Positions 2,820 through 32,698 of a DNA stretch of 64,000 nucleotides are shown piece by piece. Origin of the DNA: an uncultured Bacilli bacterium. GTDB lineage: Bacteria > Bacillota_I > Bacilli_A > RF39 > UBA660. A program made the position numbers and the translations under genes. Position 1 is the stretch's first letter, and each line of letters starts with the position of its first letter. The notes under the pieces are model-generated. The model saw only the letters and a list, made by a program, of their open reading frames with translations, was not told the DNA's origin and made no database searches. The stretch lies in assembly GCA_947626095.1 (NCBI GenBank), contig CANQQV010000007.1:13882-77881 (forward strand), given 5' to 3'.

Positions 2820-2852
2820 AAAAAAGAGACGACTTAATTAATTAGTCATCTC
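2820..2852 (-). terminator. Rho-independent terminator closing the T4SS/Tad supercluster
   Basis: Minus strand reads GAGATGACT-aattaatta-AGTCGTCTC followed by TTTTTT. The 9-bp stem overlaps the virD4-like stop codon. Confidence 0.6.
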
Positions 2853-5568
2853 CAAAGAAATCATCAAAGAATTCATCATCTGATATAACACTATTATCAT
2901 TTATTTTAACTTTATCTGGATCAATATTAACATTAACCTTTTCTTTTTCTACTTCTTTATTAGTACTTACTACTGATTCAGGAAGCTTGTCCTCCGTAAC
3001 TTGTGTATTATAAATATTATATTCACTTTCTGTATTAGGTTTATTACCACCAACATTATATGAAGTAACAACTGGTTTAGGAGCTTTATTAGTAAATTCA
3101 CTAACTTCCTTTTTAACCTCTTCTTCCGTTTTTACTTCATTTTTAATTCCACTCATTACATCAGGCATCTCATTATAAATATTATAATTATCTTCTGTTG
3201 TTTTAACTACAGTTCCACTATTATAATTAGGTTGAATAATTGAAGCATTAACCGCTTTTGGTAAAGTATCAAAACTGTCAATATCTTCATCAGGACTACT
3301 AGTAGCAACAGCAATATTAGCTTTCTCTGTTCCTATTGTAATCTCACTATCATCATTCTTAACCTCAAAATCATCTTTAGCATCAGTATCAAAAATATTA
3401 AATGAATTAATATCTGGTGTTTTTAAATCATCAACTTTTTCTTCAACCGGAACTACATCTTTAACATTATTATTATTTAAAATATAATCATTTATTCCAT
3501 CATTAATCTTATCAACATCAAAGTCTGGTTTCTCTTTTTCTTCTATTGATTTGATATCATTTGTCTCTTTATTCTTCGATGCATCCTTTAATTTAGCCTG
3601 TTCTTCTTTTTGGCGTGCTTCTTCGGCATCTAACTCTGCTATCTTTCTATCTATATCACGCATCATAGCATCTAAATCTAATCCGCCACCTAAGCCCCCA
3701 AATAAACCACTATCATTACCATCAGATGGAGCAGATGGAGCAAAAGGATTAGAACTACTACTAGGTCCAAACATATCACCACGTGGTCCAAATGGACTAT
3801 CCATTGGTGATTTAAAAGGATTACCACCCATCGCAGCTCCACCATTTTCATTTAACGAATTTTTAATCTTTTCACTTTTTTTCTTCTTTGTGAACTCTTT
3901 TACATCAAACTTCTGAACTGGTCTCTTTTCTCTTACTGGATAAGAAGCTTCTGTTTTAGGATGACCCCAATCCATTTTAAAGTTTGGTGTATACTTCGTT
4001 TTAAATGGTGATAAACGTAATCTAATTATAATTGCTTCAAACAATTTTAACTTTTGTAAATCAGTTACAGTAACCAAAGGTGTAGAAGCTGTTTTATCTT
4101 TATCACTAGATTTAACTTCACCACACATTTTACTTATTTCTTCCAATGCTGCTAACTCAGTACTAATTAAGTATACTAAGTTACCACAGTTACCTTTAAT
4201 AGTTTCCGCATCTTCATTACCATAAACACTCTTTAATTGGGCAAAGTTTTGAATAATAAATGTAAATCTTATCGCACGAGAACGAGCCGCTGTAACCATT
4301 GTTGTAACATCCTTAAGTGGCGGCATGTTAGCAAACTCATCCAAAATAAAATTAGTTCTATATGGTAACTTTCCTCCATTAGCTTGAGCTACATCAATTA
4401 ATGTTTCATAAACTTGTTTAATAAAAATAGTAGCTAAACTATGATATGTTGTTTTTTCATCATGAATAACAATAAAAACAGCTGTTTTTTCTTTACCAAT
4501 ATTACGCATATCAAAGTCACTATATGATAGCATTTCTGATAAATTTTCACGTGAAGCAAATAATCTTATCTTTTGTCTAAATACTGATAAAATACCACCT
4601 TTAGTTTCAGTAGGAGCATTTATTGTATTTGAAGCAAATATATAAGGACTTGAATCTTCACCCTTTAAAGTAAAATATTCTTTAATATAATTACTAGCGG
4701 CAAATTTTTCTTCCCCAACAGTACTCATCAAGTTAATAGAGTTAAGATTTATTTCCTCTATCTTAGCATCTTCAAATAAACCTAATGCTAAACCTGAAAA
4801 GTAGTCAGCTGATGATTTTTCCCAGAAAGGATCCTTATTATTAGGATCATACAAAATATTTAACGCAACGTCATCTAGTAACTCAGTTGCTTTATCAAAA
4901 TTACCATCTTTATAGTATTGATAAGGTAAAGTAAGTGGGTTCCAAGCATTACCATTTTGTGGCTCACGAAAGTTTAAAATAACAACATTATAACCTCTCT
5001 GCCTCATATAGTCGCTAGACGCTTTATATAATTCACCTTTAGGGTCAGTTATAACCATACTTTCGCCTTTTTTAATTAAAAGTTCAACCATTGGTTCAAC
5101 AACCGTTTGTGATTTACCTGAACCAGTAGAACCTATAACCAAATTATGATATTCACCATTATCTACCCATAATCTTTTACCATCATTAACTAAAGGAATA
5201 CCAGCAGCTTTTGTTTCTTGAGCTAAAGGTTCTACAATTTCAACGTCTTTATCATTTTTTATTTCTCTATCTTTTGACCATCTTGAATAACCTTTACTTT
5301 CCTTTTCACCTATTTCTAAGCCTACACCTTTTTTTCTTTCAAAAACCAAAGAAGAAACACTTGTAAAAATTAAAACTAAAAGTATTAAAAATAAAACTAA
5401 AGTCGCTCCTAAGAATTCTGTTAATCCAGGTATTGGATTTAATCCTGAAAAGGCTCCTGTTTCTCCAAAAGAATTTATATTAGCTGTCGCAATTGCACAA
5501 AGATATAACAAAAATCCCGCAAAAATCGCAAACATTATCAAATCTTTACTTGAAATACGAAATTTCAT
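2842..5568 (-). CDS. virD4: Type IV coupling protein (VirD4/TraG family) with a long low-complexity C-terminal tail
   Basis: 908 aa. Two N-terminal TMs, Walker A LVIGSTGSGKSQTVVEP, NFILDEFANMPPL (Walker B-like), SRAIRFTFIIQNFAQL. The last ~370 aa are acidic, G/P/F-rich and low complexity. RBS GGGGTGGA precedes the ATG. Confidence 0.85.
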   Translation of the reverse strand: MKFRISSKDLIMFAIFAGFLLYLCAIATANINSFGETGAFSGLNPIPGLTEFLGATLVLFLILLVLIFTSVSSLVFERKKGVGLEIGEKESKGYSRWSKDREIKNDKDVEIVEPLAQETKAAGIPLVNDGKRLWVDNGEYHNLVIGSTGSGKSQTVVEPMVELLIKKGESMVITDPKGELYKASSDYMRQRGYNVVILNFREPQNGNAWNPLTLPYQYYKDGNFDKATELLDDVALNILYDPNNKDPFWEKSSADYFSGLALGLFEDAKIEEINLNSINLMSTVGEEKFAASNYIKEYFTLKGEDSSPYIFASNTINAPTETKGGILSVFRQKIRLFASRENLSEMLSYSDFDMRNIGKEKTAVFIVIHDEKTTYHSLATIFIKQVYETLIDVAQANGGKLPYRTNFILDEFANMPPLKDVTTMVTAARSRAIRFTFIIQNFAQLKSVYGNEDAETIKGNCGNLVYLISTELAALEEISKMCGEVKSSDKDKTASTPLVTVTDLQKLKLFEAIIIRLRLSPFKTKYTPNFKMDWGHPKTEASYPVREKRPVQKFDVKEFTKKKKSEKIKNSLNENGGAAMGGNPFKSPMDSPFGPRGDMFGPSSSSNPFAPSAPSDGNDSGLFGGLGGGLDLDAMMRDIDRKIAELDAEEARQKEEQAKLKDASKNKETNDIKSIEEKEKPDFDVDKINDGINDYILNNNNVKDVVPVEEKVDDLKTPDINSFNIFDTDAKDDFEVKNDDSEITIGTEKANIAVATSSPDEDIDSFDTLPKAVNASIIQPNYNSGTVVKTTEDNYNIYNEMPDVMSGIKNEVKTEEEVKKEVSEFTNKAPKPVVTSYNVGGNKPNTESEYNIYNTQVTEDKLPESVVSTNKEVEKEKVNVNIDPDKVKINDNSVISDDEFFDDFFGDD

Positions 5569-5649: not shown

Positions 5650-6426
5650 TTATTTTTTTGTAATTTTTGTAATAATTAAAACAAATATAAAGAACAATCC
5701 TAAAGCTCCAATAGCTATTAAAATAGGATTCTGATTAGCTATTTTACTAACCTCAGATTCGTTCTTCTTATCCTTCTTAGTAACAGTTATTCCACCACTT
5801 TCACTACCCGATGGATTACTAGGATTACTAGGTTCAGTACTTTCTCCCTTACTTATATCATAAAGAATATAAATACTCTTCTTACTACTAGGAGTAAATA
5901 CCCAAGTATATACATTATCCTTAACTGAATCAGCATTATTCTCTTTAACTGGATATTCTGACTTAATATTAATCTTTACTTCCGTCAAATTAGGATGATC
6001 TTTAAACAATAAAATTCCTGCATTATCAGTTGATAAAGATATTGTCTTTTCATTAGTATCTTTAATAATTGATGGTGAAGAAAATGCCTTCTTTACACTA
6101 CTAGCTTTATTATAATTACCTAAACCATAATTATATTTATAATATAAAATATATCCGTTACTTAACTCCGTACTAGATTTTTCATAATATTCTATTCCTG
6201 GTTCTTTTTGATCAGGCATCGTATCAACTATTTCTACATCAGCACATGCTGGCATAAAATTTCTAAAAGCCAATCCCATTTGTTCTTTATTATAATAATT
6301 ATCTTGCAAAGCTGTAATAGATACATTTTCTTCTATACTATCTTCTTTAACTACTATATTAACATTAGCACTACATCCACACAGTAAAACCATCAAACAA
6401 CTTAATATAACTAACTTAATTTTCAT
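5650..6426 (-). CDS. T4SS-associated putative lipoprotein with a C-terminal TM anchor
   Basis: 258 aa. Signal peptide with lipobox-like LLCGC, and C-terminal helix NPILIAIGALGLFFIFVLII followed by KITKK. Its start overlaps the upstream stop (ATGA at 6423-6426). Confidence 0.55.
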   Translation of the reverse strand: MKIKLVILSCLMVLLCGCSANVNIVVKEDSIEENVSITALQDNYYNKEQMGLAFRNFMPACADVEIVDTMPDQKEPGIEYYEKSSTELSNGYILYYKYNYGLGNYNKASSVKKAFSSPSIIKDTNEKTISLSTDNAGILLFKDHPNLTEVKINIKSEYPVKENNADSVKDNVYTWVFTPSSKKSIYILYDISKGESTEPSNPSNPSGSESGGITVTKKDKKNESEVSKIANQNPILIAIGALGLFFIFVLIITKITKK

Positions 6427-8888
6427 GTTCCTTCACTCCTTTGATGAGTACTATACCATCCATCCATTTTAATACCCCAATATCCTGAACTATTAAATGG
6501 TCTTCTTGTAAATAATACTCCAGCCGCATTACCACTAGCTTCAGCACAAATATAATTACCAGTTGATTCTTCAATACCAACTACTAATACAATATGCCCA
6601 CTCGATTCTAATAAATCTCCTGGTTCCAAAATCGCACTATTTGTTAAAGAAACTTTTTGTACACCTGACATATTTTGGAATCCACCAGCTAACATTTGTG
6701 CAATATTAAAGCCACCATTCTTAATCGCCCATGGTACAAAACCAGAACAATCTAAACCACAATAATTATAAGATTGATTATTAGCATAAGTATGACATTG
6801 CGTACTACCCCAATAACCTAAAGCACCAATTACAACACCATCAGCGTGTCCACCACCCCAATAATAAGGCACTTTAACATTATAATTATTACCTAATTCT
6901 GCAATTAACGTAACTGCCGCTGCAACTACTCCAGCTCTAGTTCCAAATCCAGCTTTTTCAACATTCTTTTCTATTAAACCATTAAAAGCTTCCAAACTAG
7001 TACCTTGCTTTTCTAAGAATGAATCTAATGGTTCATGTAAAATAGTATGACCATCCGAAGATAATACATAATCCCCATAATCAATAATTCCACTTGAACA
7101 AGTAGCACCAGATATTGAACCACCACCATAATGAATACTTAATATTTCATCATAAGTATGTCCTTCAGCTTCTAATCTACTCCATTCTTGTTGATCAGTA
7201 TTAATATAATCTGTATGTACTACATTTCCACTATCATCGACTAATACTTTTCCTTTAACTTCTTCAGCAACAGCCAAAACTTCCTCTTTAGTTGCTTCAT
7301 CCAAAGCCCTTTTCCAAATAGTTCCACTATTTATTTCTGGTGAATAAAGTGAAATAGCCCCTCTATCATAACGATAAATATCTTTATCATAATCCCAATA
7401 AACTTGATCAGCTTCACAAGCACGCATCCTTATTTTACCAGTATTTTGATTATAACCATAAAAACAATCATCAGGATTACTTGGACACATTGAAGAATTT
7501 CTTGTTAAAGCAAAATTCCTTGCTGCTACTATCTCTGTTTTAAAATACTCAGGTTTATCCCTAGAATAACCTACTTCAGCTAAAGCAACACCAACAACAT
7601 ATTTTTCAAAATCAACAGTTTCTAAAACAGTATAATTACTTGCTTTAGCATCACAATTAACTAACTCGACTTGTATTCCCTCTAAATTAACTGTTCCAGT
7701 TGTTAAAACACCATTTAAAGAATAATTACATTTACCATTACTTTTACCATTACCATCTAATTCATCAGATAAAGTAGTAATTATTAATATTAAAAAGAAT
7801 AAAATTACAATAGCTAAAATAATTGCAACATGTGGATGAGTCTTTAAAAAATTAATTATCGCTTTTTTCGCAGTACCTAACGCCTTATTAAAAGCATTAT
7901 TACCAGACTTTCCACTACGTCCATTACTATTATCCGAAACATCTCCCTCTGTTCCAGCTTTACCACTCAATAAATTCTTTAAACCACTTTTAAGTCTAGC
8001 TCCAATAGAAGGAGTAACTTCTTCATTAATGCTACCACTAGAACTCTTTGCATTACTTTGATTATTACTATTTTCTCCTTCACGTACTCTTCTTGAATGT
8101 TCTAAATTTTGACGAAATCTATCTGGCTTTTCTCCCTCCTGCGCCTCTGGCTTTCTTCGTAGATTTCGATAATTATTAGCCGTTTGGCCATTATTTTGAC
8201 TATTATTTTGTTCATCTACTTTATCTTTATCTAGCTTATTAGGTGCTTCAGGATTCTTCTCACTATCACCAGGTTTTACATCTTTATTATCACCATTTTT
8301 ATCATCTTTATTTTGTTCATCTTTTTCAGGCTTATTACCGCCATTTTTATCATCTTTACTATCTTGATCTTCTAAATCATTTTTTCTTGGTAATCCACCA
8401 CTACCATTTCCCTCAGTATTTTCAGGTACACTCGGATTATTTCCCTGATAACCACTATTTCTTCGAATAGGTTGATCACTAGAATTATCAACCGGTCTCG
8501 GTTCACTTGGTGGCATAGAACTACCATAATCCTTACCAACATCAGGGGCACCTTCTCGTGGATTTGCCTTTTTAACTGGTGTTGTTGGACGTTCTTCCTT
8601 ACCACCTGAATCTTTATTCAATCCCATATCTTTTTTTGGTAAACTAGAAGCTTTTTGGACATTATTAGCACCAGTATCATTCATCATTGCATTAGGATTA
8701 TATCCCTTAGCCATTGCTTTATCTAAATCTTTACTTGCATCAGCAAGATCACTACTAGCTTTTTTTAAATTTTGTGCATGTTCTAAATTATCTCTATTTA
8801 AATCTTTTAAACTAGCTTCAACAGCACTATCCTTATCAGGCTCTAAATCAATCTTTACTTTAAATTCATTATCAGAATCTTGTGCCAT
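6423..8888 (-). CDS. Bifunctional cell-wall hydrolase (SpoIID-like domain + NlpC/P60 endopeptidase), VirB1 analogue
   Basis: About 345 aa disordered K/D/N/G-rich N-terminus, one TM, then YVVGVALAEVG..EIVAARNFALTR (SpoIID/LytB-like) and a C-terminal GLDCSGFVPWAIKNGG .. SSGHIVLVVG (NlpC/P60 Cys/His). The ORF track starts at a GTG at 8903; the ATG at 8888 is preferred. Confidence 0.75.
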   Translation of the reverse strand: MAQDSDNEFKVKIDLEPDKDSAVEASLKDLNRDNLEHAQNLKKASSDLADASKDLDKAMAKGYNPNAMMNDTGANNVQKASSLPKKDMGLNKDSGGKEERPTTPVKKANPREGAPDVGKDYGSSMPPSEPRPVDNSSDQPIRRNSGYQGNNPSVPENTEGNGSGGLPRKNDLEDQDSKDDKNGGNKPEKDEQNKDDKNGDNKDVKPGDSEKNPEAPNKLDKDKVDEQNNSQNNGQTANNYRNLRRKPEAQEGEKPDRFRQNLEHSRRVREGENSNNQSNAKSSSGSINEEVTPSIGARLKSGLKNLLSGKAGTEGDVSDNSNGRSGKSGNNAFNKALGTAKKAIINFLKTHPHVAIILAIVILFFLILIITTLSDELDGNGKSNGKCNYSLNGVLTTGTVNLEGIQVELVNCDAKASNYTVLETVDFEKYVVGVALAEVGYSRDKPEYFKTEIVAARNFALTRNSSMCPSNPDDCFYGYNQNTGKIRMRACEADQVYWDYDKDIYRYDRGAISLYSPEINSGTIWKRALDEATKEEVLAVAEEVKGKVLVDDSGNVVHTDYINTDQQEWSRLEAEGHTYDEILSIHYGGGSISGATCSSGIIDYGDYVLSSDGHTILHEPLDSFLEKQGTSLEAFNGLIEKNVEKAGFGTRAGVVAAAVTLIAELGNNYNVKVPYYWGGGHADGVVIGALGYWGSTQCHTYANNQSYNYCGLDCSGFVPWAIKNGGFNIAQMLAGGFQNMSGVQKVSLTNSAILEPGDLLESSGHIVLVVGIEESTGNYICAEASGNAAGVLFTRRPFNSSGYWGIKMDGWYSTHQRSEGT

Positions 8889-8912
8889 AATTACCACTTC
8901 CACACTAAATAA

Positions 8913-8961: not shown

Positions 8962-10746
8962 CTATAATCCACCACCTGCACCAAAAGAATCTAATTCCTC
9001 TTGTGTACATAGGACTCTAACTCTCATACGTCGACTACCACAAATGAATAAAGCTTCACCTTGGTTATAATATTTAATACTATCCATTTCACTTTCATTT
9101 AAGTCAATTAATAAACCTAAATCTTCAACCGCTTGTTTCTTTAAGTTCATTACTAAATAATACGAAGCATTATCAAATATTGCTTTACCATGAACAATTA
9201 AGTTTGGTGCCGCAAAATCAGTAGGTTGTTGTGTAATCAAAATAGTACCAGTATTATACTTACGAGCACGTCTTTGCATTTGGGCTAAGAACTCAGCACC
9301 TAATTCATTTCTCGTTGATAATAAAACGTGAGCTTCATCAACACATAAAACAGTTGTTGTTTCTTTATCAAGACATAATCCCCAAGCATACTTCAAAATA
9401 TTAAAGAACAATGCATTTCTAATATTTTCATCACTATTCATTAATTCTTTAATATTAAAAACAATTATATCACTATTGATATTTAAAGTTGTATGACCAC
9501 AGAAATAATATCTTAATTCCTTCGTTAATGGACGAACTTTTAATTCAAGTCTTTCCATAACATCTCTTTCACGTGTCTTATCAGGCATTGAAAGTAAACG
9601 ACCTTTAATTGTTGCATAAACATCATCAAATGTTGGAAAATCTTCTGATTTCAACGTTGCAAAATTAGTATCAAAGTCTATTTTATAACGTTTATATGTA
9701 TCTTGAACTACTTCACTAAACATTGTTAAAACATCTTCTTCAATACTTGGTGAATAATACTTCATAAACGCTTTTAATGATTGTAAAGCTCTAGTTAAAA
9801 CAGTATAACCTAAACCCTGGTCTAACTCATCTTGATCAGCATCTGGTACAACTTCAAGTGGATTTATCATACCATAATCTCCACCTTTACCTAAATCAAG
9901 GTAACTACCATTTACATTACGACACATTTCTTCAAGTTCACCCTCAGGGTCAACACAAATTACTTTATATCCGTTTCTAATATGACTTCTAATTAATAAC
10001 TTAGCCGCAGTTGATTTACCACTACCAGAAGTACCTAAAATAATCATATTAGCATTATTTCTATTATGTTCTTTTTTTATTTTAAATAAGAATTGATTAA
10101 ATAAGATAACACCACCAGAAAAATCAACACCCATTAAAGTTGAATCTCCTGGATCCTTAATACTATCAAAAACAAAAGGATACATTGCAGCTATTGTAAT
10201 AGAAGGTATTGGTGTTCCAATTCTATTTTCAATATCTTGTTTAGGGAATATTGGAATAATTGACTTAAGAACCTTCTCTTGTTCAAACATAAGAGGAATA
10301 GCCTTCATACCTAAAGCATCAACATAACTACGTACTTGCATTTTCTTCATTTCAAGTTCTTCTTCACTATCAGCTGTAATCATAATATGTAATTGAAAAT
10401 CAAAAATTCTTGCTTGTGTTGCTGCTAGCATTGAAATAAATCCTTCTAATGACTCATAATCTTGTCTAATTCTCTCTTGAATAGTTTGATCTCTCTCAGA
10501 TTGATAACGCATCTTCAAATCAGCTATCTCTTTATTAAGCATACTTTGTAAAGTTGAGAATTCAATTGGAATATGTTTAGCTACCAACTTAACTCCAGAT
10601 ATATAAGTTAAATCAGATAAATATCCAGGATTAATAAACTTAGGATAACTAATAACAGTCATTATTGTCGCATTCTTACCACTTATGATAAATTCCATTG
10701 GTTTAAATTGTAGCCCTTTAGGAGCTACTTCACTTTTTATATTCAT
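8962..10746 (-). CDS. virB4: VirB4-family T4SS ATPase, C-terminal (ATPase) part
   Basis: 594 aa. Walker A MIILGTSGSGKSTAAKLL, Walker B VLCVDEAHVLL, TGTILITQQPTD. Its start overlaps the stop of the preceding ORF (ATGA at 10743-10746). Confidence 0.85.
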   Translation of the reverse strand: MNIKSEVAPKGLQFKPMEFIISGKNATIMTVISYPKFINPGYLSDLTYISGVKLVAKHIPIEFSTLQSMLNKEIADLKMRYQSERDQTIQERIRQDYESLEGFISMLAATQARIFDFQLHIMITADSEEELEMKKMQVRSYVDALGMKAIPLMFEQEKVLKSIIPIFPKQDIENRIGTPIPSITIAAMYPFVFDSIKDPGDSTLMGVDFSGGVILFNQFLFKIKKEHNRNNANMIILGTSGSGKSTAAKLLIRSHIRNGYKVICVDPEGELEEMCRNVNGSYLDLGKGGDYGMINPLEVVPDADQDELDQGLGYTVLTRALQSLKAFMKYYSPSIEEDVLTMFSEVVQDTYKRYKIDFDTNFATLKSEDFPTFDDVYATIKGRLLSMPDKTRERDVMERLELKVRPLTKELRYYFCGHTTLNINSDIIVFNIKELMNSDENIRNALFFNILKYAWGLCLDKETTTVLCVDEAHVLLSTRNELGAEFLAQMQRRARKYNTGTILITQQPTDFAAPNLIVHGKAIFDNASYYLVMNLKKQAVEDLGLLIDLNESEMDSIKYYNQGEALFICGSRRMRVRVLCTQEELDSFGAGGGL

Positions 10747-11336
10747 TGTGTTCTCACCGTCCCAAAAGTCGTTGTCATACCACCATTTAAGAAATTATCT
10801 AAGATCATTCTTAAATCGGCATTTGAAACTTGAGTTGAATTAATGGAAGCATTAGCAAGTCCCGCAATTAAATTACGAATACGTTTTTGAATAATTTCCA
10901 TCCTTTTTTCTTTAAATAATATAAAATACTCAGTATCTACAACATTATATTCCGCCCCCATAAAGGCATTAGCTTTATTAATATCTTGGATAATAAGTTT
11001 TCTAATAGTTCCATCCCCACATTTTTGATATAAAAGTTGTAACTGTGATAAATACAAATTAATATCAACTGGACGATCTGCTACTACTAACCAAAACTCA
11101 TAATCAATCATATTATAAAAGTTTTGTAAATTGAAGATAACGTTTTCTCTTTCACCAGCATCCAAAATAAAGATATTTTTAGGTGCTACTTTAATTCCAG
11201 TAACATAATAACCATTATCTAACTGAATCATTCCATTCATTATATTCTTAATAGGAACCCAGTCTTCAGAATATTTACTAGAACCATCACTACTTGAATT
11301 GCTGTTTACTTGTTCTATCATCGCCATACCTTGCAC
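10743..11336 (-). CDS. VirB4-family N-terminal domain encoded as a separate ORF
   Basis: 197 aa. DWVPIKNIMNGMIQLDNGYYVTGIKVAP resembles the N-terminus of Gram-positive VirB4 homologues. 197+594 aa is about the usual single-chain VirB4 size. GTG start with GGAGAGG 5 nt upstream. Confidence 0.6.
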   Translation of the reverse strand: MQGMAMIEQVNSNSSSDGSSKYSEDWVPIKNIMNGMIQLDNGYYVTGIKVAPKNIFILDAGERENVIFNLQNFYNMIDYEFWLVVADRPVDINLYLSQLQLLYQKCGDGTIRKLIIQDINKANAFMGAEYNVVDTEYFILFKEKRMEIIQKRIRNLIAGLANASINSTQVSNADLRMILDNFLNGGMTTTFGTVRTQ

Positions 11337-25573: not shown

Positions 25574-26083
25574 CTATGGATAATAATCACAATAACTATT
25601 ATTCATCTTATCAGATACACAATTTAAACCGTCATCATCACAGTCCAAATTTGCTGAATCAAATTCAACGATCAAATCTATTGAATTAACAACATCTAAA
25701 TCAGTCATAGCATGTTCTCCTGCCGTTTCCTCAGTATCACGACCAATTATAAAACCAGCAGTTGTTGTTGATATTTTGACACTTACTTTAGGAGGAGATT
25801 CATATAAATCATAAAATTGAATATTATAACTATCAGTTACTGAAACAGTTTCAGCGAATCTTCTTAGGAAGTTTTCAACGAAAACTTCCTTTAAGATTCT
25901 AACTTGTCCAGTTTGTGAATAATATCTATAATCAATTGCATCATACAATGCACTATTTGCTACTTCTTTCAATTGATAATAATCTTGAGTATTAGATGTC
26001 GTAGCATCATTTGTTAACATCATAACTGATGCTATAAAGATACCAAGAATTATAAACCAATAGCCCCAGTAGGATTCTTTCAT
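25574..26083 (-). CDS. TadE-like pseudopilin
   Basis: 169 aa. MKESYWGYWFIILGIFIASVMMLTNDA (short leader plus hydrophobic helix), with C-terminal Cys residues. RBS AAGGAG. Confidence 0.45.
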   Translation of the reverse strand: MKESYWGYWFIILGIFIASVMMLTNDATTSNTQDYYQLKEVANSALYDAIDYRYYSQTGQVRILKEVFVENFLRRFAETVSVTDSYNIQFYDLYESPPKVSVKISTTTAGFIIGRDTEETAGEHAMTDLDVVNSIDLIVEFDSANLDCDDDGLNCVSDKMNNSYCDYYP

Positions 26084-26099: not shown

Positions 26100-29000
26100 C
26101 TATTTAAATGCCAATCTATAATATTGTGTACTTTCAACAGGTTCCCATATGTTCTTAGCGGTTCCTGTTTCAATATAATCTATCCAACGACAGTTACCTG
26201 AAGCAATTTTGTTCTTCAATTCTTCCTTAGCAGAATCTGAATTAGAAGAAACTATTTCACAAACATTATTTTCACTTCTCATATTACTTAAATTATTTGT
26301 TCCAGCAGAAGCACCTGTTGAACTAAATAAGTCATTAAAGTTCTCTAAGAAATTACTTCCATAATGACCAAAGTTAGCAATGTAATTGTTCATATCATCT
26401 TCTTGATCACTAGTTGCAAACCAAGAACAACTTGAAGGATCATCACAAGAACCTAATGGTTGAATAGAAGCACGACCATAAATAGTCAAGTTATCGAAAT
26501 TAACTTCATAACCATATCTATCATTATAATCTCTTATAGCAGCTAAAGTTGTAGGTCTAAGTTCAAATGAATACTCTGGAGTAGTACCACCATCATTCAA
26601 ATAAACTTTTTCACCTTGTTCTTCAATTTCCTTCAAGGCAACTTCACCTTTATTAGTAATTAACTTATTACCGCCATAATAGAATACACCCCTATTAGTC
26701 CAGTTATTTCCAAGTTCTCTATCTGTAGGACTATTCAAGTCAGATAACGCTACAGTAGTTGTATATAGTCCAAGTGTACCTCTAGCTTTATCATACTCAG
26801 TTTCCCTATTGAAATCATAATCAAATCCAACAGAACTTGCAAACTCTTGCGCAGTTGTCTCAGTTTCAGAAGTATAAGTAACAATTGGATCACCACAACA
26901 TAAGCAAATATCTTCAACTACCTCATAGAAACACGTTCGTTTATTTTGTGGAATCAATGCCTCTGCATCACCCATGACTCGACCGAGCTGTCCATCACTA
27001 TAACTACCAATTTGTGTAAACTGATAAGTATATCTATATAAGTTTCGTGCCGTAGTCATACTTACTGGGAAGATATTTAAATTACCTTCAATATCTCTAT
27101 CATCACCAGTCATCGTACCACTGAATACCGACCAACCTTTTTTAGCCTTATCGGAGCGATCAGTATAACTAGGTCCGCCTTCACGTTTAGCAGCATTATC
27201 CCATGCATCCTCTAAATCATCACCATGTTCACGCGTATCATTTGGTCCAGTATACCAAATACCTTTATTTCGATAGAAACTACTATTAGTAATCGAAGCT
27301 TTAATATAATGAGCTTTAAAATAAGAAACATTAAAGCTATAACATTTTCCACCTTCCCATCGTGGAACACGCTCAGAAATTTGGAAAGTATAAGCATCAC
27401 CATTCTTATTATATCCAGTTCCAGTACCAGCAATTTCTCGACCAATAGAACATAAAGTTATAAGTTTAGTTACTACATGTTCTGAACCAGCATTATTTTT
27501 GATAGAAAGTGGCTTATTATCTTTATAAAATTCAGTACCTTCACCATACTTTTTGATTAAATCATCATCCATCCAAGGTCCATCTTCAGGGTCATAATAA
27601 GCAAATTCAAGATAGTTTCTTGCCAGTTTAACTGGTGTATCAGGTGTTTCTTCACAAGCTTCTTCACCAACCGCCAGTTCACAAGGATCTGTAAATCCAA
27701 CATAAGCATCTACCATCTTATTTGTACTCTTATTAAATCCTTCAGTAATACCCTCTTTTAAGAAGAATTTATCATTTAACTGATCATATTGAATTAAAAT
27801 ATTATCATCTTGCAATATAGTCATATAAAGTTTTTCATCATAATCATAAGAAACAAAAGGTTCAAACATTGTTAAGATTTGCATGAATGTCTTTGTACCA
27901 GTAAATGATGATTTATCAGTACTAGCTGGATTATTCGCTTTACCATTAGCATCATCGGTAGCATTATTTAATTCAAAGTGTTGACAATTCCAGAATTGTT
28001 CATACTTATTATTAATTATGTTCGCCGCACTAGTCATCTTCTGATAAGCAGGGCTCATTATAGCTTCACTTGCTGCTTTCATTTTATCAGAAAGATTCGT
28101 AAATGCAGTTTGCTTATTGGTATCAGTATTACCAAGATAACATCCATCAGCAGAAGTTGTTGGATTTTCCCCAGCTGTTTGACCATCATAACCAGCAGAA
28201 GTAGGTTTTGATGTAAATGTACAAGCAGTTCCAGATACCTTATCTTGCGAATAATCAGGTTTAGTAGGCGTTTTAACTGGATCGGAAGTAACATTATCAG
28301 TTACAGTGTAATTATTGTATGATCCTTGTCTTTCATCTCCATCACCTTGGAACTTCATATTCAATGATAATTCATAATGGCCATATCGAGTTGTATCGTT
28401 ATTATCAGATCTTATATTTTGAAGCGTACATTCCCAGTCACTATCTTCAGATTCATCTTCCTCTGTATCTTCATCATCTTCAACTTCATTATAAGTCCAT
28501 TGTAAACATCCTGAATCAGGAACAAACACTAATTTATCAGATGTATAATCTTGATCATCTATATCCGTATAAGCATGCGAAGCATTACTATATGTATTAT
28601 AGTTATTAACCATTATTTTAGACTGTTCAACCAAATCTCTCATAAATAAGTCATAATCAAGATACGTAGTATAACATGTACGACCACCTTGAATAAATAA
28701 ATTATTATTAGCATTTTGGAAGAATTTACCAGCTAAAACAGCATTTTTACCAACGAAGTTACCAAATGCTTCCATTGTAATTACCCAGTCTTCACGACAT
28801 GATACTTGACAATATTCATTACCTTGATAAGATGCAACCATTATCGAATTACCACGATCATCTTCTTTTTGATATACTGAAAGATCTCTCTCTGCATCTA
28901 CATCAGCTGCATAATTATCTTTAACATTAACAACACAAGTACCTATTGCTTCCGTGTACTTCTCCTCTGTACCAGTATAATAAGCACCTTCCTTTACCTC

Positions 29001-31952
29001 ATATAAATCAGGTGAGCCAGCATAATCAGCTCTATAGCTACATACACTAGACATTGTTGAAACAGAGCAATCTCCATTACAAACGTTTTTCATAACATAT
29101 TGATATGAAACCTCGTCTAAAACATTACTACAGCATCCAGATGCTTTAAACAATGATTTATTGAATGATGATGGGCAATGATCTTCATCAGTACATTGTG
29201 TATAATCTAAACTTTCAAGTTTAGAACATATTGAAGGTCCACCATCTATATTAAAGTAAATAAATGTTGAATCACTATTTAAATCAAAGACAAGCATTCT
29301 TTGCTTAGAAGCACTACCAGCATATGGATTTCCTATACGTATACTTGAATAGTCAATACCACCTTCATACTTAATTTCTAAAGCATATTGTTCTTCTTCT
29401 TGTCTATTTTTAGGTAATGTAACAGCTTTAGCATCAGTAACTTCTATTTTTACTTCATAATCATATACTTCTTGTAATGGATCGGTTGTAGATTTATCGG
29501 TATTTTTTTCCATCTTAACTAAAGTACCTTTAACTCCTTGAACAACACCAGTATCATCGTCAGGATGTGGAAGATATTGATAATTAGAAGTATTACCCAT
29601 AGTTAATCGTGTATTGACAGGCAATGTCATAGTTCCTTTGTAAACAATCGTATAACTATTTCCATCATCACCAAAAGTTATATCTTTACTATCAATTGTT
29701 CTTTGGAAGGCACCACCTTCTTCAAATTTATAATTTTTGTATTTAATAAACATTTCAATTAAATAAGTACGAGCCTGTGGACTTTCAGTAACACCAAATG
29801 CATCAACAGCTGAAGTTATAGCGCTTTTAAATTCACTATTGTCTTCAAGCATATTGCCATTAGCATCTTGGTAAGCAGGATTTTCATAAATTTCCTTTAG
29901 TTTTTGGGCTAATTCTTCATAAGATAGATAGTGTTCATAATAAGCTTGATCACTATATTCTGTAACACCACTATATCCATTTATTAAAACAACAGTACGA
30001 ATAGCAACGTGTGCTGCTAATCTAACTGGATCAGTAACAGTGTCAAAATCAGCCTTACTAGAATGCTTATTAATATAGTCAATAATTACACCAATCATTT
30101 TACCTAAGTCAGAATCTTGATTAACATGTTCAGTTATATCATATTTATCGTCAGAAGGCCCCACACGACCAGGATCCATACATAAAGCAAAATACTTAAT
30201 GCTTTCATTATCAACACATCTAGCAATATAGTTATTACTATTTAAGTCATCATTAATTCCAGTTCTAACAGTATGACCTTCTGAATCTGTTTGTGCTTTT
30301 ATTTTAACTACATCACACATTTTATGTTCAAAGTCATTCAAGGCATAAGAGTTGTTTTCACCAGAAACGATATTTGCATCAACATCAATTACAAATGAAC
30401 CGTCACCAGCTTCAGAATTAACTCCAATATCTCGTACTTCAAATTTATAAACAAGATTTCTGGTTTCACCATCTTCTTGAACTGTAACATTAACATCAAT
30501 ATATTCACCAGAACCAGTAGGTGAATTACCAGCAACAAAACATTGGTTATTTATGAAACTAGCATCTAAGTTAGTAGCCGTTCCACTCTTAGCACAACCA
30601 ACCATTCCTGGAACAGATAAGTAAGTATGCTGACCAACATAAACTGATTTATATCTATCTCTTTCTCTTACAGTTCTTTTATATTGTGCTGCATAATACG
30701 CACCTTCAGTCACCGAGACTGGTCTACCTGGTTCAAGAAGCTCTCCAGAACCATTTTTTAACCAACCAAGGAATTCAGTATCTTGACCAAGTACAGTACT
30801 ATTGTTTACAACATTTGGTAAAGTAAATGTACTTCCTGTACCTCTACAGAAATATTCACCATTATCAGTTTGCGTACATTGACTTGTATCAGATAATTCA
30901 AAAGGTGTATTAATATTTGTTAATCTAACACCATCAGAATATACATAACAAGCTACATATATACCACTATCAGGTGCAACAGAAGCGCCAGGAGCAACAA
31001 CCGTTTTTCCACCTTCTGCACATTCACCTACATGCTGATAAGCAGGATCGTTTCTATTTCTTCCATCAGGAACCTTTGTCCAACCTCTAAATTCTATAGG
31101 TAAAGGTGAAGAATTCGGAGAACAGCTAGGTAACGTAACATTTCCACTTGTTACACTTACATAATAGTTGTGAGTACTACCAAACGATACAGCTCGCCAA
31201 TTCGAATCAAAACTACAAGTACCATAACCACCTGGATAAGCATTAACACCACCTGTATAACTTATTTGAAAATCTAATGTTACTGATTTTTCATCAATAC
31301 CATCAGCAGTAAATACAGCTTGAGTTTGAGCCGTAAAATTTTGGCCTTGATTTAATGCTGCATCTGTAGGTGTGACAACACAAACAGTATCACCAGGGCA
31401 CCCACTCCAATCAACATATCTTTCACTATTAGAATCTTTAGTTAAAGACTTAATTCTTACATTTCTTACATTAAATCTAACTGCTATTAAATTAGCAATA
31501 TTTTGACTAGGTTTATTGACCACTTCACCATTTATACTACCATTAAGTGGTACAGTTATTCTAGTAGGATCATTTGGTTCATAATGATAATGATAAGTAC
31601 GATGACTACCTTCATGTTCATAAGCAGGATTAGTTCTTTCACCACTCCAAGAACATGTTACATAATCATCAATAACAACTCCAGAAGGCTCAATAAGATT
31701 CCTAATTACAAAAGCATAATACGATTCTCCACCAACCGTATAATTTTCTCTTTGTATTACTAATGCCTTCAATCGTCCATCCGGAACTAAATCTGGATCT
31801 GGAACACATTCAAGGTCTATATATCTTTCAGAGCTTAATTTTACACCACTGCCATTAAATGAAAAATCATCTGTGGCCATAGCTGGACCAATAGCTACTA
31901 CAAAAGAAATTATTATAAATAGGATATATTTTCTAATATTACTAATCTTCAT
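26100..31952 (-). CDS. Giant secreted Cys-rich protein of unknown function (candidate pilus-associated adhesin or substrate)
   Basis: 1950 aa. Signal peptide ILFIIISFVVAIGPAMA/TDD. About 44 Cys by my count. No LPXTG, no C-terminal TM, and no obvious internal repeats or catalytic motifs. The start shares a base with the upstream stop (TAATG). Confidence 0.7.
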   Translation of the reverse strand: MKISNIRKYILFIIISFVVAIGPAMATDDFSFNGSGVKLSSERYIDLECVPDPDLVPDGRLKALVIQRENYTVGGESYYAFVIRNLIEPSGVVIDDYVTCSWSGERTNPAYEHEGSHRTYHYHYEPNDPTRITVPLNGSINGEVVNKPSQNIANLIAVRFNVRNVRIKSLTKDSNSERYVDWSGCPGDTVCVVTPTDAALNQGQNFTAQTQAVFTADGIDEKSVTLDFQISYTGGVNAYPGGYGTCSFDSNWRAVSFGSTHNYYVSVTSGNVTLPSCSPNSSPLPIEFRGWTKVPDGRNRNDPAYQHVGECAEGGKTVVAPGASVAPDSGIYVACYVYSDGVRLTNINTPFELSDTSQCTQTDNGEYFCRGTGSTFTLPNVVNNSTVLGQDTEFLGWLKNGSGELLEPGRPVSVTEGAYYAAQYKRTVRERDRYKSVYVGQHTYLSVPGMVGCAKSGTATNLDASFINNQCFVAGNSPTGSGEYIDVNVTVQEDGETRNLVYKFEVRDIGVNSEAGDGSFVIDVDANIVSGENNSYALNDFEHKMCDVVKIKAQTDSEGHTVRTGINDDLNSNNYIARCVDNESIKYFALCMDPGRVGPSDDKYDITEHVNQDSDLGKMIGVIIDYINKHSSKADFDTVTDPVRLAAHVAIRTVVLINGYSGVTEYSDQAYYEHYLSYEELAQKLKEIYENPAYQDANGNMLEDNSEFKSAITSAVDAFGVTESPQARTYLIEMFIKYKNYKFEEGGAFQRTIDSKDITFGDDGNSYTIVYKGTMTLPVNTRLTMGNTSNYQYLPHPDDDTGVVQGVKGTLVKMEKNTDKSTTDPLQEVYDYEVKIEVTDAKAVTLPKNRQEEEQYALEIKYEGGIDYSSIRIGNPYAGSASKQRMLVFDLNSDSTFIYFNIDGGPSICSKLESLDYTQCTDEDHCPSSFNKSLFKASGCCSNVLDEVSYQYVMKNVCNGDCSVSTMSSVCSYRADYAGSPDLYEVKEGAYYTGTEEKYTEAIGTCVVNVKDNYAADVDAERDLSVYQKEDDRGNSIMVASYQGNEYCQVSCREDWVITMEAFGNFVGKNAVLAGKFFQNANNNLFIQGGRTCYTTYLDYDLFMRDLVEQSKIMVNNYNTYSNASHAYTDIDDQDYTSDKLVFVPDSGCLQWTYNEVEDDEDTEEDESEDSDWECTLQNIRSDNNDTTRYGHYELSLNMKFQGDGDERQGSYNNYTVTDNVTSDPVKTPTKPDYSQDKVSGTACTFTSKPTSAGYDGQTAGENPTTSADGCYLGNTDTNKQTAFTNLSDKMKAASEAIMSPAYQKMTSAANIINNKYEQFWNCQHFELNNATDDANGKANNPASTDKSSFTGTKTFMQILTMFEPFVSYDYDEKLYMTILQDDNILIQYDQLNDKFFLKEGITEGFNKSTNKMVDAYVGFTDPCELAVGEEACEETPDTPVKLARNYLEFAYYDPEDGPWMDDDLIKKYGEGTEFYKDNKPLSIKNNAGSEHVVTKLITLCSIGREIAGTGTGYNKNGDAYTFQISERVPRWEGGKCYSFNVSYFKAHYIKASITNSSFYRNKGIWYTGPNDTREHGDDLEDAWDNAAKREGGPSYTDRSDKAKKGWSVFSGTMTGDDRDIEGNLNIFPVSMTTARNLYRYTYQFTQIGSYSDGQLGRVMGDAEALIPQNKRTCFYEVVEDICLCCGDPIVTYTSETETTAQEFASSVGFDYDFNRETEYDKARGTLGLYTTTVALSDLNSPTDRELGNNWTNRGVFYYGGNKLITNKGEVALKEIEEQGEKVYLNDGGTTPEYSFELRPTTLAAIRDYNDRYGYEVNFDNLTIYGRASIQPLGSCDDPSSCSWFATSDQEDDMNNYIANFGHYGSNFLENFNDLFSSTGASAGTNNLSNMRSENNVCEIVSSNSDSAKEELKNKIASGNCRWIDYIETGTAKNIWEPVESTQYYRLAFK

Positions 31953-32698
31953 TATAAAACACTCTTCTTTCTTTTAACTATTATCACAGTTATAACAACC
32001 CCGATTGCTACTATAATACCAACAATCAAAAATCTATATTTAGATATACTACTAACTACTTTATTAACGTTGTTCTCGGTTTTATTTTTGTTAGCTTCAT
32101 CAATATTTCCATTAGCTAGTTGCTCTTTATAATCATTTATCCTATCATATACCGTTGCACTATCTATTGAATAACTTGTATATTGCGTACATAGATAATA
32201 ATCAGGAACATCCGAACATATATCCAATTCAGAATATATATTAAATTTAGGAACTGTTAACTTCGTTGTCCTTAACGTCCTACCAGCACATGCTCCATAC
32301 AATGAATATATTTCAAACTGATAATCTACATTAGCATTTAAAGCCTCTTGCTTTAATGAAATTATTCCATCTTGATTAACATGTGTAGGGCCAAATACTT
32401 GAGGGTTTCCGCTTATTCCTTTACCCTGAGGAATAACTCTAACAGCCATCCTATCATTGATATTAAATATTTGGAGATATACATAATGTTTTTTCAAACT
32501 TGCGGCTCCAATTTCTGGATCCTCATCAACAGTAACTACTTCATCTCCCGTTACGTAAGTTACCTTAACGTTCGCTGCTTCACTTCTTAATTCACTTAGA
32601 AGTGTACTAGCACAAACGCCATCTTCCTCTGCTTGTACTTTAACTGTGACAAATAAAGCACATGCAGTCATTAATACAATTAAAAATTTTTTCATCAT
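31952..32698 (-). CDS. Secreted/membrane-anchored protein, first gene of the supercluster
   Basis: 248 aa. Signal peptide (..VKVQA/EEDG), Cys-containing ectodomain, C-terminal TM FLIVGIIVAIGVVITVIIV plus KRKK. Translationally coupled to the giant ORF. Confidence 0.6.
   Translation of the reverse strand: MMKKFLIVLMTACALFVTVKVQAEEDGVCASTLLSELRSEAANVKVTYVTGDEVVTVDEDPEIGAASLKKHYVYLQIFNINDRMAVRVIPQGKGISGNPQVFGPTHVNQDGIISLKQEALNANVDYQFEIYSLYGACAGRTLRTTKLTVPKFNIYSELDICSDVPDYYLCTQYTSYSIDSATVYDRINDYKEQLANGNIDEANKNKTENNVNKVVSSISKYRFLIVGIIVAIGVVITVIIVKRKKSVL

Follow-up and report, generated by a model that had tools for sequence, protein, structure and literature searches.

A chromosomal, relaxase-less gene cluster of RF39 gut Bacilli is a probable homologue of the mating-pair-formation operons of pBMB68, pXO2 and pLS20

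We analyzed a 64,000-nucleotide stretch of DNA (hereafter the window) from an uncultured Bacilli bacterium of the lineage RF39 (assembly GCA_947626095.1, contig CANQQV010000007.1, positions 13,882 to 77,881 of the forward strand), in which an unbroken run of genes at window positions 2842-32698 encodes parts of a type IV secretion system (T4SS) together with a module resembling those that build Tad pili. This cluster is likely a domesticated, chromosomally fixed and relaxase-less homologue of the mating-pair-formation operon of the plasmids pBMB68, pXO2/pAW63 and pLS20. That operon type natively combines a monoderm (MPF-FATA-like) T4SS, consisting of VirB2-like, VirB6-like and VirB3 proteins, a split VirB4, a wall hydrolase and VirD4, with a Tad-like type-IV-filament module, consisting of a T2SSE ATPase, two T2SSF-like proteins, a CpaB-like protein, DUF5411, pilin- and pseudopilin-like proteins, a possible TadZ and a large surface protein. 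A preliminary description of the window, made from the sequence alone, had presented the joining of the two modules as unprecedented. That premise was not borne out: the conjugation operons of pBMB68, pXO2/pAW63 and pLS20 hold the same collinear arrangement, and the finding is less unprecedented than was proposed because the pairing already exists on classical plasmids.

Results

Gene content and order of the cluster

The open reading frame (ORF) listing of the window places 22 genes, all on the minus strand, between 2842 and 32698, and the minus-strand run extends beyond the cluster down to position 796 through genes for rhodanese, DedA and RmuC. The preliminary description had given 23 consecutive genes; the co-directional run stands, and the figure, which depends on counting, becomes 22. 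The overlapping junctions that it named are present (ATGA at 6423-6426 and 10743-10746, TAATG at 31952), and every motif that it quoted (e.g. GSTGSGKS, GTSGSGKS, VDEAH and GETGSGKT) was found in the translations. The remaining intergenic gaps are mostly 0-31 nt, and the widest, of 106 and 70 nt, flank a gene for a protein of 1038 amino acids (aa) on each side. In order of transcription, the cluster reads as follows.

26100..32698, minus strand: a 248-aa secreted, C-terminally anchored protein, then a 1950-aa secreted giant, together heading the cluster; candidate adhesin or surface components
25574..26083, minus strand: DUF5411 protein with a pseudopilin-like N-terminus (PF17424, 2.1e-51)
24747..25550, minus strand: CpaB/RcpC-like (SAF-domain) protein (RcpC, 2.3e-4, below the gathering score)
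23150..24715, minus strand: T2SSE-family hexameric ATPase of the TadA/CpaF or VirB11 type (PF00437, 3.4e-25)
21450..23134, minus strand: two paralogous polytopic membrane proteins of 297 and 262 aa, candidates for a T2SSF/TadB-TadC-like platform by profile-profile comparison (hhalign)
18263..21379, minus strand: 1038-aa fusion of an FAD-dependent oxidoreductase with a large polytopic membrane domain (Amino_oxidase, 7e-16; NAD_binding_8)
17618..18156, minus strand: a pair of small pilin-like proteins, 78 and 90 aa long, in which an invariant N-terminus MKEATGELN.. precedes a hydrophobic helix
16466..17608, minus strand: two pseudopilin-like paralogues of 198 and 181 aa, whose N-terminal 'MKE/N..G' motif precedes a hydrophobic helix
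15352..16437, minus strand: tentative TadZ-like candidate of 361 aa, with a receiver-like N-terminal half and a degenerate P-loop in its C-terminal half
14965..15342, minus strand: VirB2-like small membrane protein (b) (PF18895, 2e-6, 28.2 bits, above the gathering score)
14490..14888, minus strand: VirB2-like small membrane protein (a) (PF18895 T4SS_pilin, 1.8e-4, 21.9 bits, below the gathering score)
11650..14487, minus strand: 945-aa polytopic membrane protein with a long coiled and charged C-terminal half, VirB6-like by position and topology
11290..11628, minus strand: 112-aa VirB3/PrgI-like membrane protein (TcpE, 0.0076)
10743..11336, minus strand: 197-aa TrsD/TraC-like protein (positions 95-276 of the Mbov_0397 mycoplasma ICE VirB4 model, 1.2e-13)
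8962..10746, minus strand: VirB4 ATPase, short form of 594 aa (P-loop_TraG, 1.1e-14; AAA_10)
6423..8903, minus strand: 826-aa membrane-anchored peptidoglycan hydrolase, VirB1 analogue (SpoIID, 3.1e-6; NlpC/P60, 0.0098, weak)
5650..6426, minus strand: 258-aa lipoprotein with a lipobox-like N-terminus in its translation and a C-terminal membrane anchor
2842..5568, minus strand: VirD4-type coupling protein of the CD1115 family (PF02534, 6.9e-57; TraG-D_C, 5.9e-24)

The two-module layout seen earlier is thus confirmed, with the T4SS parts at the low end and the T2SSE ATPase, the two T2SSF-like proteins and the CpaB-like and pilin-like genes at the high end. With regard to individual families, the earlier assignments of VirD4, VirB4, the hydrolase, the VirB2-like pair, the T2SSE ATPase and the CpaB-like protein are supported, and those of TadB/TadC, TadZ, VirB6 and the pilins are weaker than had been implied. 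The window is AT-rich (GC 25-36%) with a strongly negative GC skew throughout, and the GC content is 0.30-0.36 in parts of the cluster and 0.25-0.29 in the flanks. Promoter-like and terminator-like sites were no commoner than in shuffled sequence, which leaves the previously proposed 'T4SS operon promoter' unsupported; because the scans did not exceed their shuffled controls, operon boundaries could not be set.

Collinear operons on conjugative plasmids

In searches of PLSDB proteins, the best matches to VirB4 came from B. thuringiensis conjugative plasmids and those to the T2SSE ATPase were the proteins called 'VirB11' on a Peribacillus plasmid, pXO2 and the pLS20-type natto plasmids. On annotated plasmid maps, both modules fall within one transfer region with MOBP relaxases alongside. 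In pBMB68, a MobP3 relaxase and VirD4 come first, and a small protein, TrbL/VirB6, PrgI, an unnamed gene, VirB4 and NlpC/P60 follow; a later stretch encodes an SLH protein, a protein of 851 aa, DUF5411, a CpaB-like SAF protein and an AAA ATPase, and the last part consists of the T2SSE ATPase, two ~300-aa proteins, small proteins and DUF4320. On pXO2 and the pLS20-like plasmid, the ATPase is followed by a pair of membrane proteins, small proteins, a protein of the TrbC/VirB2 family and (VirD4); a large membrane protein of the pLS20_p028 family comes next, then small proteins, a TrsD-like protein and VirB4, and a bifunctional hydrolase and a MobP2 relaxase close the order. Iterated searches matched the TadA, TadB, TadC, CpaB, TrsD-like, VirB4 and VirD4 proteins of the window to pBMB68 ORFs, and TadA, TadC, VirB4 and VirD4 also to ORFs of the pLS20-like plasmid.

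The operons of pBMB68, pXO2-pAW63-pBT9727 and pLS20 are collinear with the RF39 cluster. They share a start (large surface protein, DUF5411-like protein, in some cases CpaB/SAF and AAA ATPase, then T2SSE ATPase), a middle (two membrane paralogues of ~250-300 aa, small pilin- or pseudopilin-like proteins and a VirB2-family protein) and an end (VirB6-position protein, VirB3/PrgI, TrsD-like protein, VirB4, bifunctional wall hydrolase and CD1115 VirD4). They differ in that the plasmids are mobile and carry MOBP2 or MOBP3 relaxases, primases and replication or partition genes, whereas the window has none of these and its cluster is chromosomal and vertically inherited. VirD4 closes the cluster in the window but lies mid-operon or beside the relaxase on plasmids. 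Moreover, the ATPases of window and plasmids are only ~29-33% identical, and the VirB6-position protein and the small pilins have no detectable match on the plasmids. Given this low identity, the time and direction of chromosomal capture are inferred.

The plasmid operons also bear on how monoderm conjugation systems have been described. The plasmid literature names the ATPase 'VirB11' and its neighbors unknown, and states that pLS20-family plasmids lack VirB2 (PMC8557374, PMC1196294); Gram-positive T4SSs have been said to lack VirB11 universally (PMC12857230), and reviews describe them as being without VirB11, VirB2 pilins or pili (PMC12857230; PMC11730352). A VirB2-family protein nevertheless closes the run of small genes after 'VirB11' in the pLS20-like, pXO2 and Peribacillus (L051:23526-23798) plasmids (L-numbers denote related loci fetched for comparison, plasmid loci included). 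The 76-aa protein of the pLS20-like plasmid (L042:4420-4650) scores 32 bits on PF18895, above the gathering score, and the 92-aa protein of pXO2 (L133:23541-23819) matches TrbC/VirB2 (PF04956) at 4.9e-14. Judged by these domain matches, the genes on pLS20-like plasmids appear to be at odds with the published absence of VirB2. The background from which the preliminary description argued, namely that Gram-positive T4SSs are pilus-less and Tad-like loci autonomous, is contradicted by plasmids that carry both TrbC/VirB2-family genes and a T2SSE/T2SSF-like module.

Chromosomal residence and vertical inheritance

We recognized the system in 80 metagenomic loci and in 38 genomes at species level. Databases list over 7,355 homologues of the T2SSE ATPase, which share a 375-residue core that hardly varies, and over 7,249 of VirB4, of which the top 120 are all exactly 594 aa long and at least 88% identical. 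The named sources of these relatives are 'Bacilli bacterium', 'uncultured Tenericutes', Coprobacillus sp. CAG:605 and Candidatus Coprovivens, the last of which belongs to GTDB order RF39, family CAG-1000 (PMC8035907). Against 1.84 billion cluster representatives, the RF39 VirB4s collapse to one cluster; the next relatives are 44% identical and lie on short contigs, and beyond them come proteins at 32-34% identity, including those of Thomasclavelia ramosa and Solobacterium, members of the Erysipelotrichales that, at 32% identity, are the closest outgroups with a name. The RF39 system therefore appears to form a distinct deep branch. We found no description of it in the literature on RF39 or Coprovivens and secretion or pili.

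The flanks of the cluster are identical in its relatives, with CotZ, metallophosphoesterase, CPBP and thioredoxin genes on one side and rhodanese, DedA, RmuC, BacA and tRNA synthetase genes on the other. Synonymous divergence (dS) from one related locus (L005) is ~0.5-0.9 for nearly all cluster genes (1.4 for one short pilin gene) and 0.68-0.91 for the flanks. In the closest comparisons, the ratio of nonsynonymous to synonymous divergence (dN/dS) is 0.03-0.12 for the TadB/C/Z-like proteins, VirB4, VirB3 and the TrsD-like protein (0.04-0.12 for TadB/C-like, 0.05-0.09 for VirB4), and against more distant loci it rises to at most 0.19 for the TadZ-like protein and 0.26 for VirB3; flanking genes give 0.2-0.33. 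Very low ratios are thus shared by the motor parts of both units. On these comparisons, the cluster is a long-resident, selected and vertically inherited chromosomal system of RF39 gut Bacilli.

The preliminary description had reported the absence of mobility genes from the cluster and its flanks, and we can extend this: no relaxase, integrase, replication or partition gene was found in the whole 64 kb. The window contains no tRNA, no direct repeats (att) bound the cluster, and neither the window nor ~125 related loci contain a homologue of the MOBP2/MOBP3 relaxases or the primases that the related plasmids carry. In ~2 kb of DNA beyond the left window edge, where the preliminary description had recommended a search, there is again no relaxase, integrase, tRNA or att site, and this DNA holds a class-Ib tRNA synthetase gene and a small ORF.

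These data make it highly improbable that the cluster is an ordinary integrative and conjugative element (ICE) or the remnant of an integrated plasmid, either decaying or with its relaxase and integrase elsewhere. Such an origin would fit the plasmid context of the relatives outside the lineage, since all close ones whose context is known lie on conjugative plasmids, and it would fit the slightly higher GC content of parts of the cluster. It is nevertheless largely refuted. An ICE or integrated plasmid is at odds with housekeeping flanks that are conserved on both sides across many species, with a dS equal to that of the flanks and with the lack of integrase, relaxase, tRNA and att in the window, and we rejected it as we did a decaying remnant, the ORFs being intact in dozens of loci and dN/dS very low.

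Components of the T4SS

VirD4 scores 298 bits on the NCBIfam model conju_CD1115, over the curated cut-off of 250, is homologous to the coupling proteins of pBMB68 and the pLS20-like plasmid, and lies downstream of VirB4 in 44 of the 47 informative loci. Its C-terminus (window 2842-4000) is a low-complexity extension of ~400 aa, enriched in Asn, Asp, Glu and Lys. The hydrolase is conserved beside VirB4, with its SpoIID domain recorded in relatives, and its family hidden Markov model (HMM) gives weak matches to plasmid lysozyme/C40 hydrolases. In three related loci (L069, L078 and L079), the hydrolase and VirD4 are absent downstream of VirB4. The lipoprotein between hydrolase and VirD4 had no match in a Pfam scan, and its RF39 family HMM found no plasmid counterpart; it occupies the same place in relatives, at 44% identity, and may be a conserved accessory protein, possibly with a VirB8-like role.

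VirB4 is 29% identical over its full length to a B. thuringiensis plasmid VirB4, and database sources assign its relatives to the VirB4 family. The 197-aa gene directly upstream, whose nature the preliminary description had not recognized, is, by its model match, a separately encoded VirB4 N-terminal domain, so that VirB4 is split as it is with TrsD in some Gram-positive systems. PF26593 (TraC-like) is recorded in relatives, and the pBMB68 homologue of the 197-aa protein likewise lies directly upstream of VirB4. The VirB3-like family HMM matches a 'PrgI family' protein of pBMB68 at 9e-6.

The 945-aa protein had no match in a Pfam scan and reached 1.9e-5, under the cut-off, on the NCBIfam model for the Mbov_0396 ICE transmembrane protein. 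It agrees in position and size with the 952-aa pLS20_p028-family protein of pXO2; its family HMM had no sequence match to pLS20_p028 or TrbL proteins, and it evolves fast (27-73% identity among relatives). The two VirB2-like proteins are paralogues, and the true start of (b) is probably an internal ATG, as its relatives are ~107 aa long. Some related loci contain arrays of five VirB2-like genes (L069:2311-6697; L077; L080:82-4667), in which several members are proteins of 200-530 aa that end in a VirB2 domain; these arrays resemble the pilin arrays described in Patescibacteria.

Components of the Tad-like filament module

The T2SSE ATPase scores 109 bits on the NCBIfam VirB11 model and 104 bits on the model for the TadA conjugal-transfer-associated ATPase, both under the cut-offs, so the two types are indistinguishable by score. 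Its catalytic core is nearly invariant, and its C-terminus (window 23150-23560) is a poorly conserved tail of ~130 aa, enriched in Pro, Ala, Val and Ser. The two platform candidates had no sequence match in Pfam, NCBIfam or the PDB, and a Pfam scan of eleven TadB-like members returned only noise. Profile-profile comparison was more informative: over the T2SSF domain, the TadB-like and TadC-like families matched an alignment of true TadB/TadC proteins from Ralstonia, Sinorhizobium and Streptomyces with hhalign probabilities of 81% (E 1.3e-5) and 89% (E 2.2e-6), and they matched each other, as paralogues, at 92%. An AlphaFold2 model of the TadB-like protein from a shallow alignment reached a pLDDT of 58.7, and its Foldseek matches were meaningless. 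Homologues of the pair follow the ATPase in the pBMB68, pLS20-like and Peribacillus plasmids.

Upstream of the ATPase, the CpaB-like HMM matches the SAF-domain protein of pBMB68 at 1.4e-34, and just upstream of its SAF and ATPase genes pBMB68 also has a DUF5411 gene, to which the family HMM links the DUF5411 protein of the window; in distant relatives the CpaB-like gene is duplicated. Farther down the cluster, the TadZ-like protein is highly conserved (56-96% identity) and had no match in Pfam, NCBIfam or a profile search of all PDB chains. Its P-loop region gave a weak local match to the AAA ATPase of pBMB68 (hhalign E 1e-3, HMM 3.7e-3) and none to Ralstonia CpaE by hhalign, and a single-sequence AlphaFold2 model (pLDDT 36.7) was discarded.

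Five proteins of the cluster have a pilin-type N-terminus, that is, a short polar leader and then a hydrophobic helix. The N-termini of the pilin-like proteins, MKEATGELN(M/G)(T/S)VI.., and those of the pseudopilin-like proteins are each conserved across loci. The 90-aa pilin-like protein matches archaeal Pilin_N weakly (0.0025), and the pseudopilin-like HMMs match a 120-aa gene that follows the TadC-like gene on the Peribacillus, pLS20-like and pXO2 plasmids at 6e-5 to 2e-3; the RF39 family HMMs found no plasmid counterpart for the 78- and 90-aa pilins. The Flp processing motif G/XXXXEY was not found in the pilin-like N-termini, which have no EY, and no A24 prepilin peptidase (TadV/CpaA) was found among the scanned window proteins, although the rest of the genome may hold one. 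The pilin N-termini hold a conserved N-x-T/S motif (ELN[MG][TS]), which raises the possibility of surface or pilin glycosylation.

A gene for a CPBP-family intramembrane protease (window 33272-33979, plus strand) adjoins the Tad-like unit in every RF39 locus, and is kept even in distant loci without the thioredoxin, giant protein and DUF5411 genes (L024, L025, L027, L029 and L041). The Peribacillus plasmid pA has a CPBP protease gene (L051:9223-9699) ~10 kb upstream of its ATPase gene. With no A24 prepilin peptidase present in the window, it is conceivable that the CPBP protease serves in processing.

The order of the genes, from CpaB through ATPase, two platform paralogues and small pilins to larger pseudopilins, is that of the Tad loci of Streptomyces and Ralstonia with which we compared it. 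We therefore call this unit a Tad-like type-IV-filament module and do not claim membership in the Tad family, because a Pfam T2SSF match, a Flp motif and a prepilin peptidase in the window are lacking and the TadZ assignment is tentative.

These same gaps could be explained if there were no Tad-type filament at all, the ATPase being a true VirB11 that docks under VirB4 and its neighbors being lineage-specific channel or wall-spanning subunits of the T4SS. The best NCBIfam score of the ATPase is indeed to VirB11, the plasmid literature gives its orthologue that name (PMC8557374, PMC1196294), and the AlphaFold2 model of the TadB-like protein is uninformative. We consider this explanation unlikely, as it leaves unaccounted for the profile matches to genuine TadB/TadC over the T2SSF domain, the presence of a CpaB/RcpC/SAF protein, the five pilin-type N-termini and a gene order, CpaB-(TadZ)-ATPase-two platform paralogues-small pilins-TadE-like, that is canonical for Tad loci such as those compared from Streptomyces and Ralstonia.

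The two units are linked but separable

Taking the ATPase as anchor, we could follow the complete gene order into the T4SS, within the limits of the contig, in 19 of 38 species-level genomes. Seven others clearly have TadA-B-C followed by unrelated genes, four are ambiguous and in eight the contig is too short. The split genomes are L029 and L041, in which SufS-SufU-SerS-FtsK follow TadC, and L011, L014, L021, L025 and L038. Taking VirB4 as anchor in the 80 metagenomic loci, we found pilin, pseudopilin and TadZ-like genes directly upstream of VirB2 in 24 (14 of which reach TadC). In 25 of the 49 informative loci the upstream genes were all housekeeping or opposite-strand ones, with no pilin or TadZ genes but with the rhodanese-DedA flank kept; the other 31 loci were uninformative. 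Lone T4SS units are preceded by suf, CoatF, FemAB or opposite-strand genes.

The T4SS unit and the TadA-B-C unit are thus separable. The break point, however, lies between TadC and the pilins and not between 'Tad' and 'T4SS': the genes for the filament subunits (pilin, pseudopilin, TadZ-like) travel with the VirB2/T4SS unit rather than with TadA-B-C, and in RF39 they were seen only directly upstream of VirB2/T4SS and never on a lone TadA-B-C. Since the plasmid homologues share the overall order, we infer that the composite is ancestral and was later split in some RF39 lineages.

The distribution could also be read as two independent systems side by side, an adhesion or aggregation pilus of Tad-like type and a separate T4SS, brought together by an accident of rearrangement. 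Lone T4SS units at the same chromosomal site and TadA-B-C units running into unrelated genes are what this would predict, and a stand-alone operon of CpaF, PilC/GspF and DUF5411 has been reported in Roseburia, Ruminococcus and Eubacterium (PMC9523054). We regard it as rather unlikely, however, in view of the recurrence of the pairing, in the same order, within single conjugation operons of three plasmid groups, the placement of the RF39 pilin, pseudopilin and TadZ-like genes solely upstream of VirB2/T4SS, and the equally low dN/dS of the motor parts of both units.

The preliminary description had suggested a single composite machine, and had named independent distribution of its halves as evidence to the contrary. 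The functional link that it drew between the modules is supported by the same pairing in the pBMB68, pXO2 and pLS20-like operons. An obligatory machine is not, with the T4SS standing by itself at its chromosomal site in 25 of 49 loci and TadA-B-C running into unrelated genes in at least seven genomes, which partly agrees with the contrary evidence that it had named.

Surface proteins and a variable cassette site

The 1950-aa giant and the 248-aa protein gave no match in a Pfam scan and are fast-evolving, with 25-52% identity among relatives and dN/dS of 0.43-0.81. Their positional analogues are the 1416-aa surface protein CDS26 in pAW63 (PMC1196294), the adhesin Tie in pLS20 (PMC8557374) and an isopeptide fimbrial protein in Peribacillus pA. 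Another candidate surface adhesin is encoded ~7 kb from the cluster (window 39763-41733, minus strand); it is 656 aa long and has a pair of cadherin-like beta-sandwich domains (1.7e-26).

The preliminary description had omitted the 1038-aa gene, which interrupts the cluster and is missing from many relatives (L001-L003, L005 and others; present in L004, L006 and L012). By comparison of these loci it is a variable cassette and not a core part. The cassette site extends from the TadC-like gene to the first of the pilin genes, and its content changes from locus to locus: two YfhO-family membrane proteins of the teichoic-acid glycosylation type in L008 (13305-18253), two ORFs of a size matching the YfhO pair (786 and 834 aa, compared by size alone) in L016, and a second copy of the giant protein in L022 (13191-18794).

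Other genes of the window

The rest of the window holds housekeeping genes: RmuC, DedA, UppP, thioredoxin, CPBP protease, metallophosphoesterase and CotZ, and further FtsW/RodA, TyrRS, ClpB, a MurF-like protein, LeuRS with a T-box leader, IF-2, NusA and TrmL. The T-box leader (101.8 bits) precedes a small ORF, after which come a 284-aa ORF and leuS (window 49736-50590 and 50980-51160, minus strand). The 284-aa ORF consists of a LeuRS editing-region-like fragment (model positions 289-371) and a NUDIX hydrolase domain, and by this domain content may be a free-standing editing-domain/NUDIX fusion co-regulated with leuS. The 707-aa ClpB homologue (window 42886-45009, minus strand) aligns only to model positions 150-848 and is thus without the canonical N-terminal domain.

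Genes of spore-coat type flank the system, namely a CotZ-like gene (window 34956-35396, minus strand) and, in a related locus, a gene for a Coat F domain protein (L053:4725-5039). The lineage was formerly classed with the wall-less Mollicutes. From the presence of spore-coat-type, MurF-like, FtsW/RodA and UppP genes, its members appear to be walled and perhaps spore-forming.

Discussion

The collinear plasmid operons, the conserved chromosomal site and the strong purifying selection together point to a mating-pair-formation operon that has probably been domesticated. Several observations weigh against this reading. Sequence identity to the plasmid systems is low (~29-33% for the ATPases); the two units are not adjacent in at least seven of 38 genomes by one anchor and in 25 of 49 loci by the other; and the Tad assignment is indirect, the ATPase scoring alike on VirB11 and TadA and the T2SSF Pfam match, Flp motif and prepilin peptidase being missing from the window. 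Finally, the exclusion of a relaxase covers the window and ~2 Mb of related loci.

If the cluster is such a domesticated operon, the whole set would have been captured in the RF39 chromosome between CotZ...thioredoxin and rhodanese...BacA and then inherited vertically under strong purifying selection. The T2SSE ATPase and the platform would build a short filament, or a pseudopilus, out of the small pilins, and this structure, together with the giant surface protein, would capture a partner cell through the wall. The hydrolase would open the peptidoglycan, and a channel of VirB4, VirB3, VirB6 and VirB2, fed by VirD4, would move substrate to the partner. Because a coupling protein of conjugation type is retained, outward contact-dependent transfer is the likeliest activity; candidate substrates are DNA with a relaxase supplied in trans, DNA handled by an unrecognized processing route, or proteins.

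A serious alternative, if not a probable one, makes the same claim about identity and differs only in function: the machine would have been repurposed from DNA export and would serve a dependent organism with a reduced genome for interaction with a host or partner, for the exchange of effectors or nutrients, or for taking up DNA. It would then have parallels in the essential relaxase-less T4SS of epibiotic Patescibacteria or in the ComB and Ced/Ted importers. The chromosomal and relaxase-less state of the genes, the arrays of up to five PF18895 genes and the TrsD-like protein are features described for Patescibacteria (PMC12102498), the longest contigs that bear the genes are ~1.0 Mb, and conservation is extreme while the surface parts diversify fast, as partner recognition would predict. 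Retention of the conjugation-type coupling protein in the operon in 44 of 47 loci argues the other way, as ComB-type importers are without one (PMC12857230) and that of Patescibacteria is mostly unlinked and non-essential (PMC12102498).

The relaxase-less chromosomal T4SS of Patescibacteria (Candidate Phyla Radiation) would, by analogy, be the closest functional counterpart of the RF39 cluster. It too has an MPF-FATA-related monoderm VirB4 with TrsD-like, VirB3/PrgI and VirB6 proteins (the last two with candidate counterparts in RF39) and PF18895 genes that are often arrayed (PMC12102498), and it is likewise chromosomal, with no relaxase nearby, and lineage-wide in organisms with small genomes, as those of RF39 may also be. 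In RF39, by contrast, the coupling protein and wall hydrolase are integral to the operon, the Tad-like module is fused to it in one sub-lineage, and the host belongs to Bacillota.

Other known systems resemble the cluster in part. The IncI plasmid R64 and PAPI-1 also pair a type-IV-filament machine with a T4SS on one transfer element, the type IV pilus serving in liquid mating, where the filament gathers partners and the T4SS transfers (PMC12857230; PMC12102498). Those elements are diderm and their type IVb pili (PilQ/PilR/PilS/PilV) come from a separate gene cluster, whereas the RF39 module is Tad/archaeal-like, monoderm and interleaved with T4SS genes. The operon predicted in Roseburia, Ruminococcus and Eubacterium shares the T2SSE ATPase (CpaF), a T2SSF-like protein (PilC/GspF), DUF5411 and a large internalin-like surface protein (PMC9523054), but by its description it is a stand-alone set of eight to nine genes with no T4SS genes mentioned. 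With the mycoplasma ICE, the cluster shares a match of the TrsD-like protein to the N-terminal region of the Mbov_0397 VirB4 (1.2e-13) and a weak one of the VirB6-position protein to Mbov_0396 (1.9e-5). These scores fall well short of the family cut-offs, mycoplasmas encode VirB4 as one long protein, and the DDE recombinase and other ICE genes are absent from the RF39 cluster. The archaeal Ups and Ced/Ted systems offer a formal analogy only, a type IV filament for contact and a channel related to VirB4/VirB6/VirB2, and their modules are unlinked, unlike those of the window. We rejected a specific relationship to Ced/Ted, as the CedD model matches only the P-loop of VirD4 (1.4e-3).

The locus and its plasmid homologues, among them pXO2 of the anthrax bacterium and pLS20, a model plasmid, expose an overlooked filament-type module and VirB2-family genes in a branch of monoderm conjugation systems. 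Plasmid pLS20 is genetically tractable and mates efficiently in liquid. The RF39 version is a second case, besides Patescibacteria, of the lineage-wide chromosomal domestication of a relaxase-less T4SS, and a system kept under strong selection in a common gut lineage offers a handle on cell interaction or DNA exchange in uncultured bacteria. More speculatively, RF39 gut Bacilli might depend on this domesticated conjugation machine, the Tad-like filament and the VirB2-bearing T4SS might form one organelle for contact-dependent exchange, and the 'VirB11 region' of pXO2 and pLS20 might build a conjugative filament. If this bold proposal, which we hold tentatively, were true, the cluster would be the Bacillota counterpart of the essential T4SS of epibiotic Patescibacteria, and there would be a Gram-positive conjugative filament, contrary to the view that such systems lack pili and VirB11.

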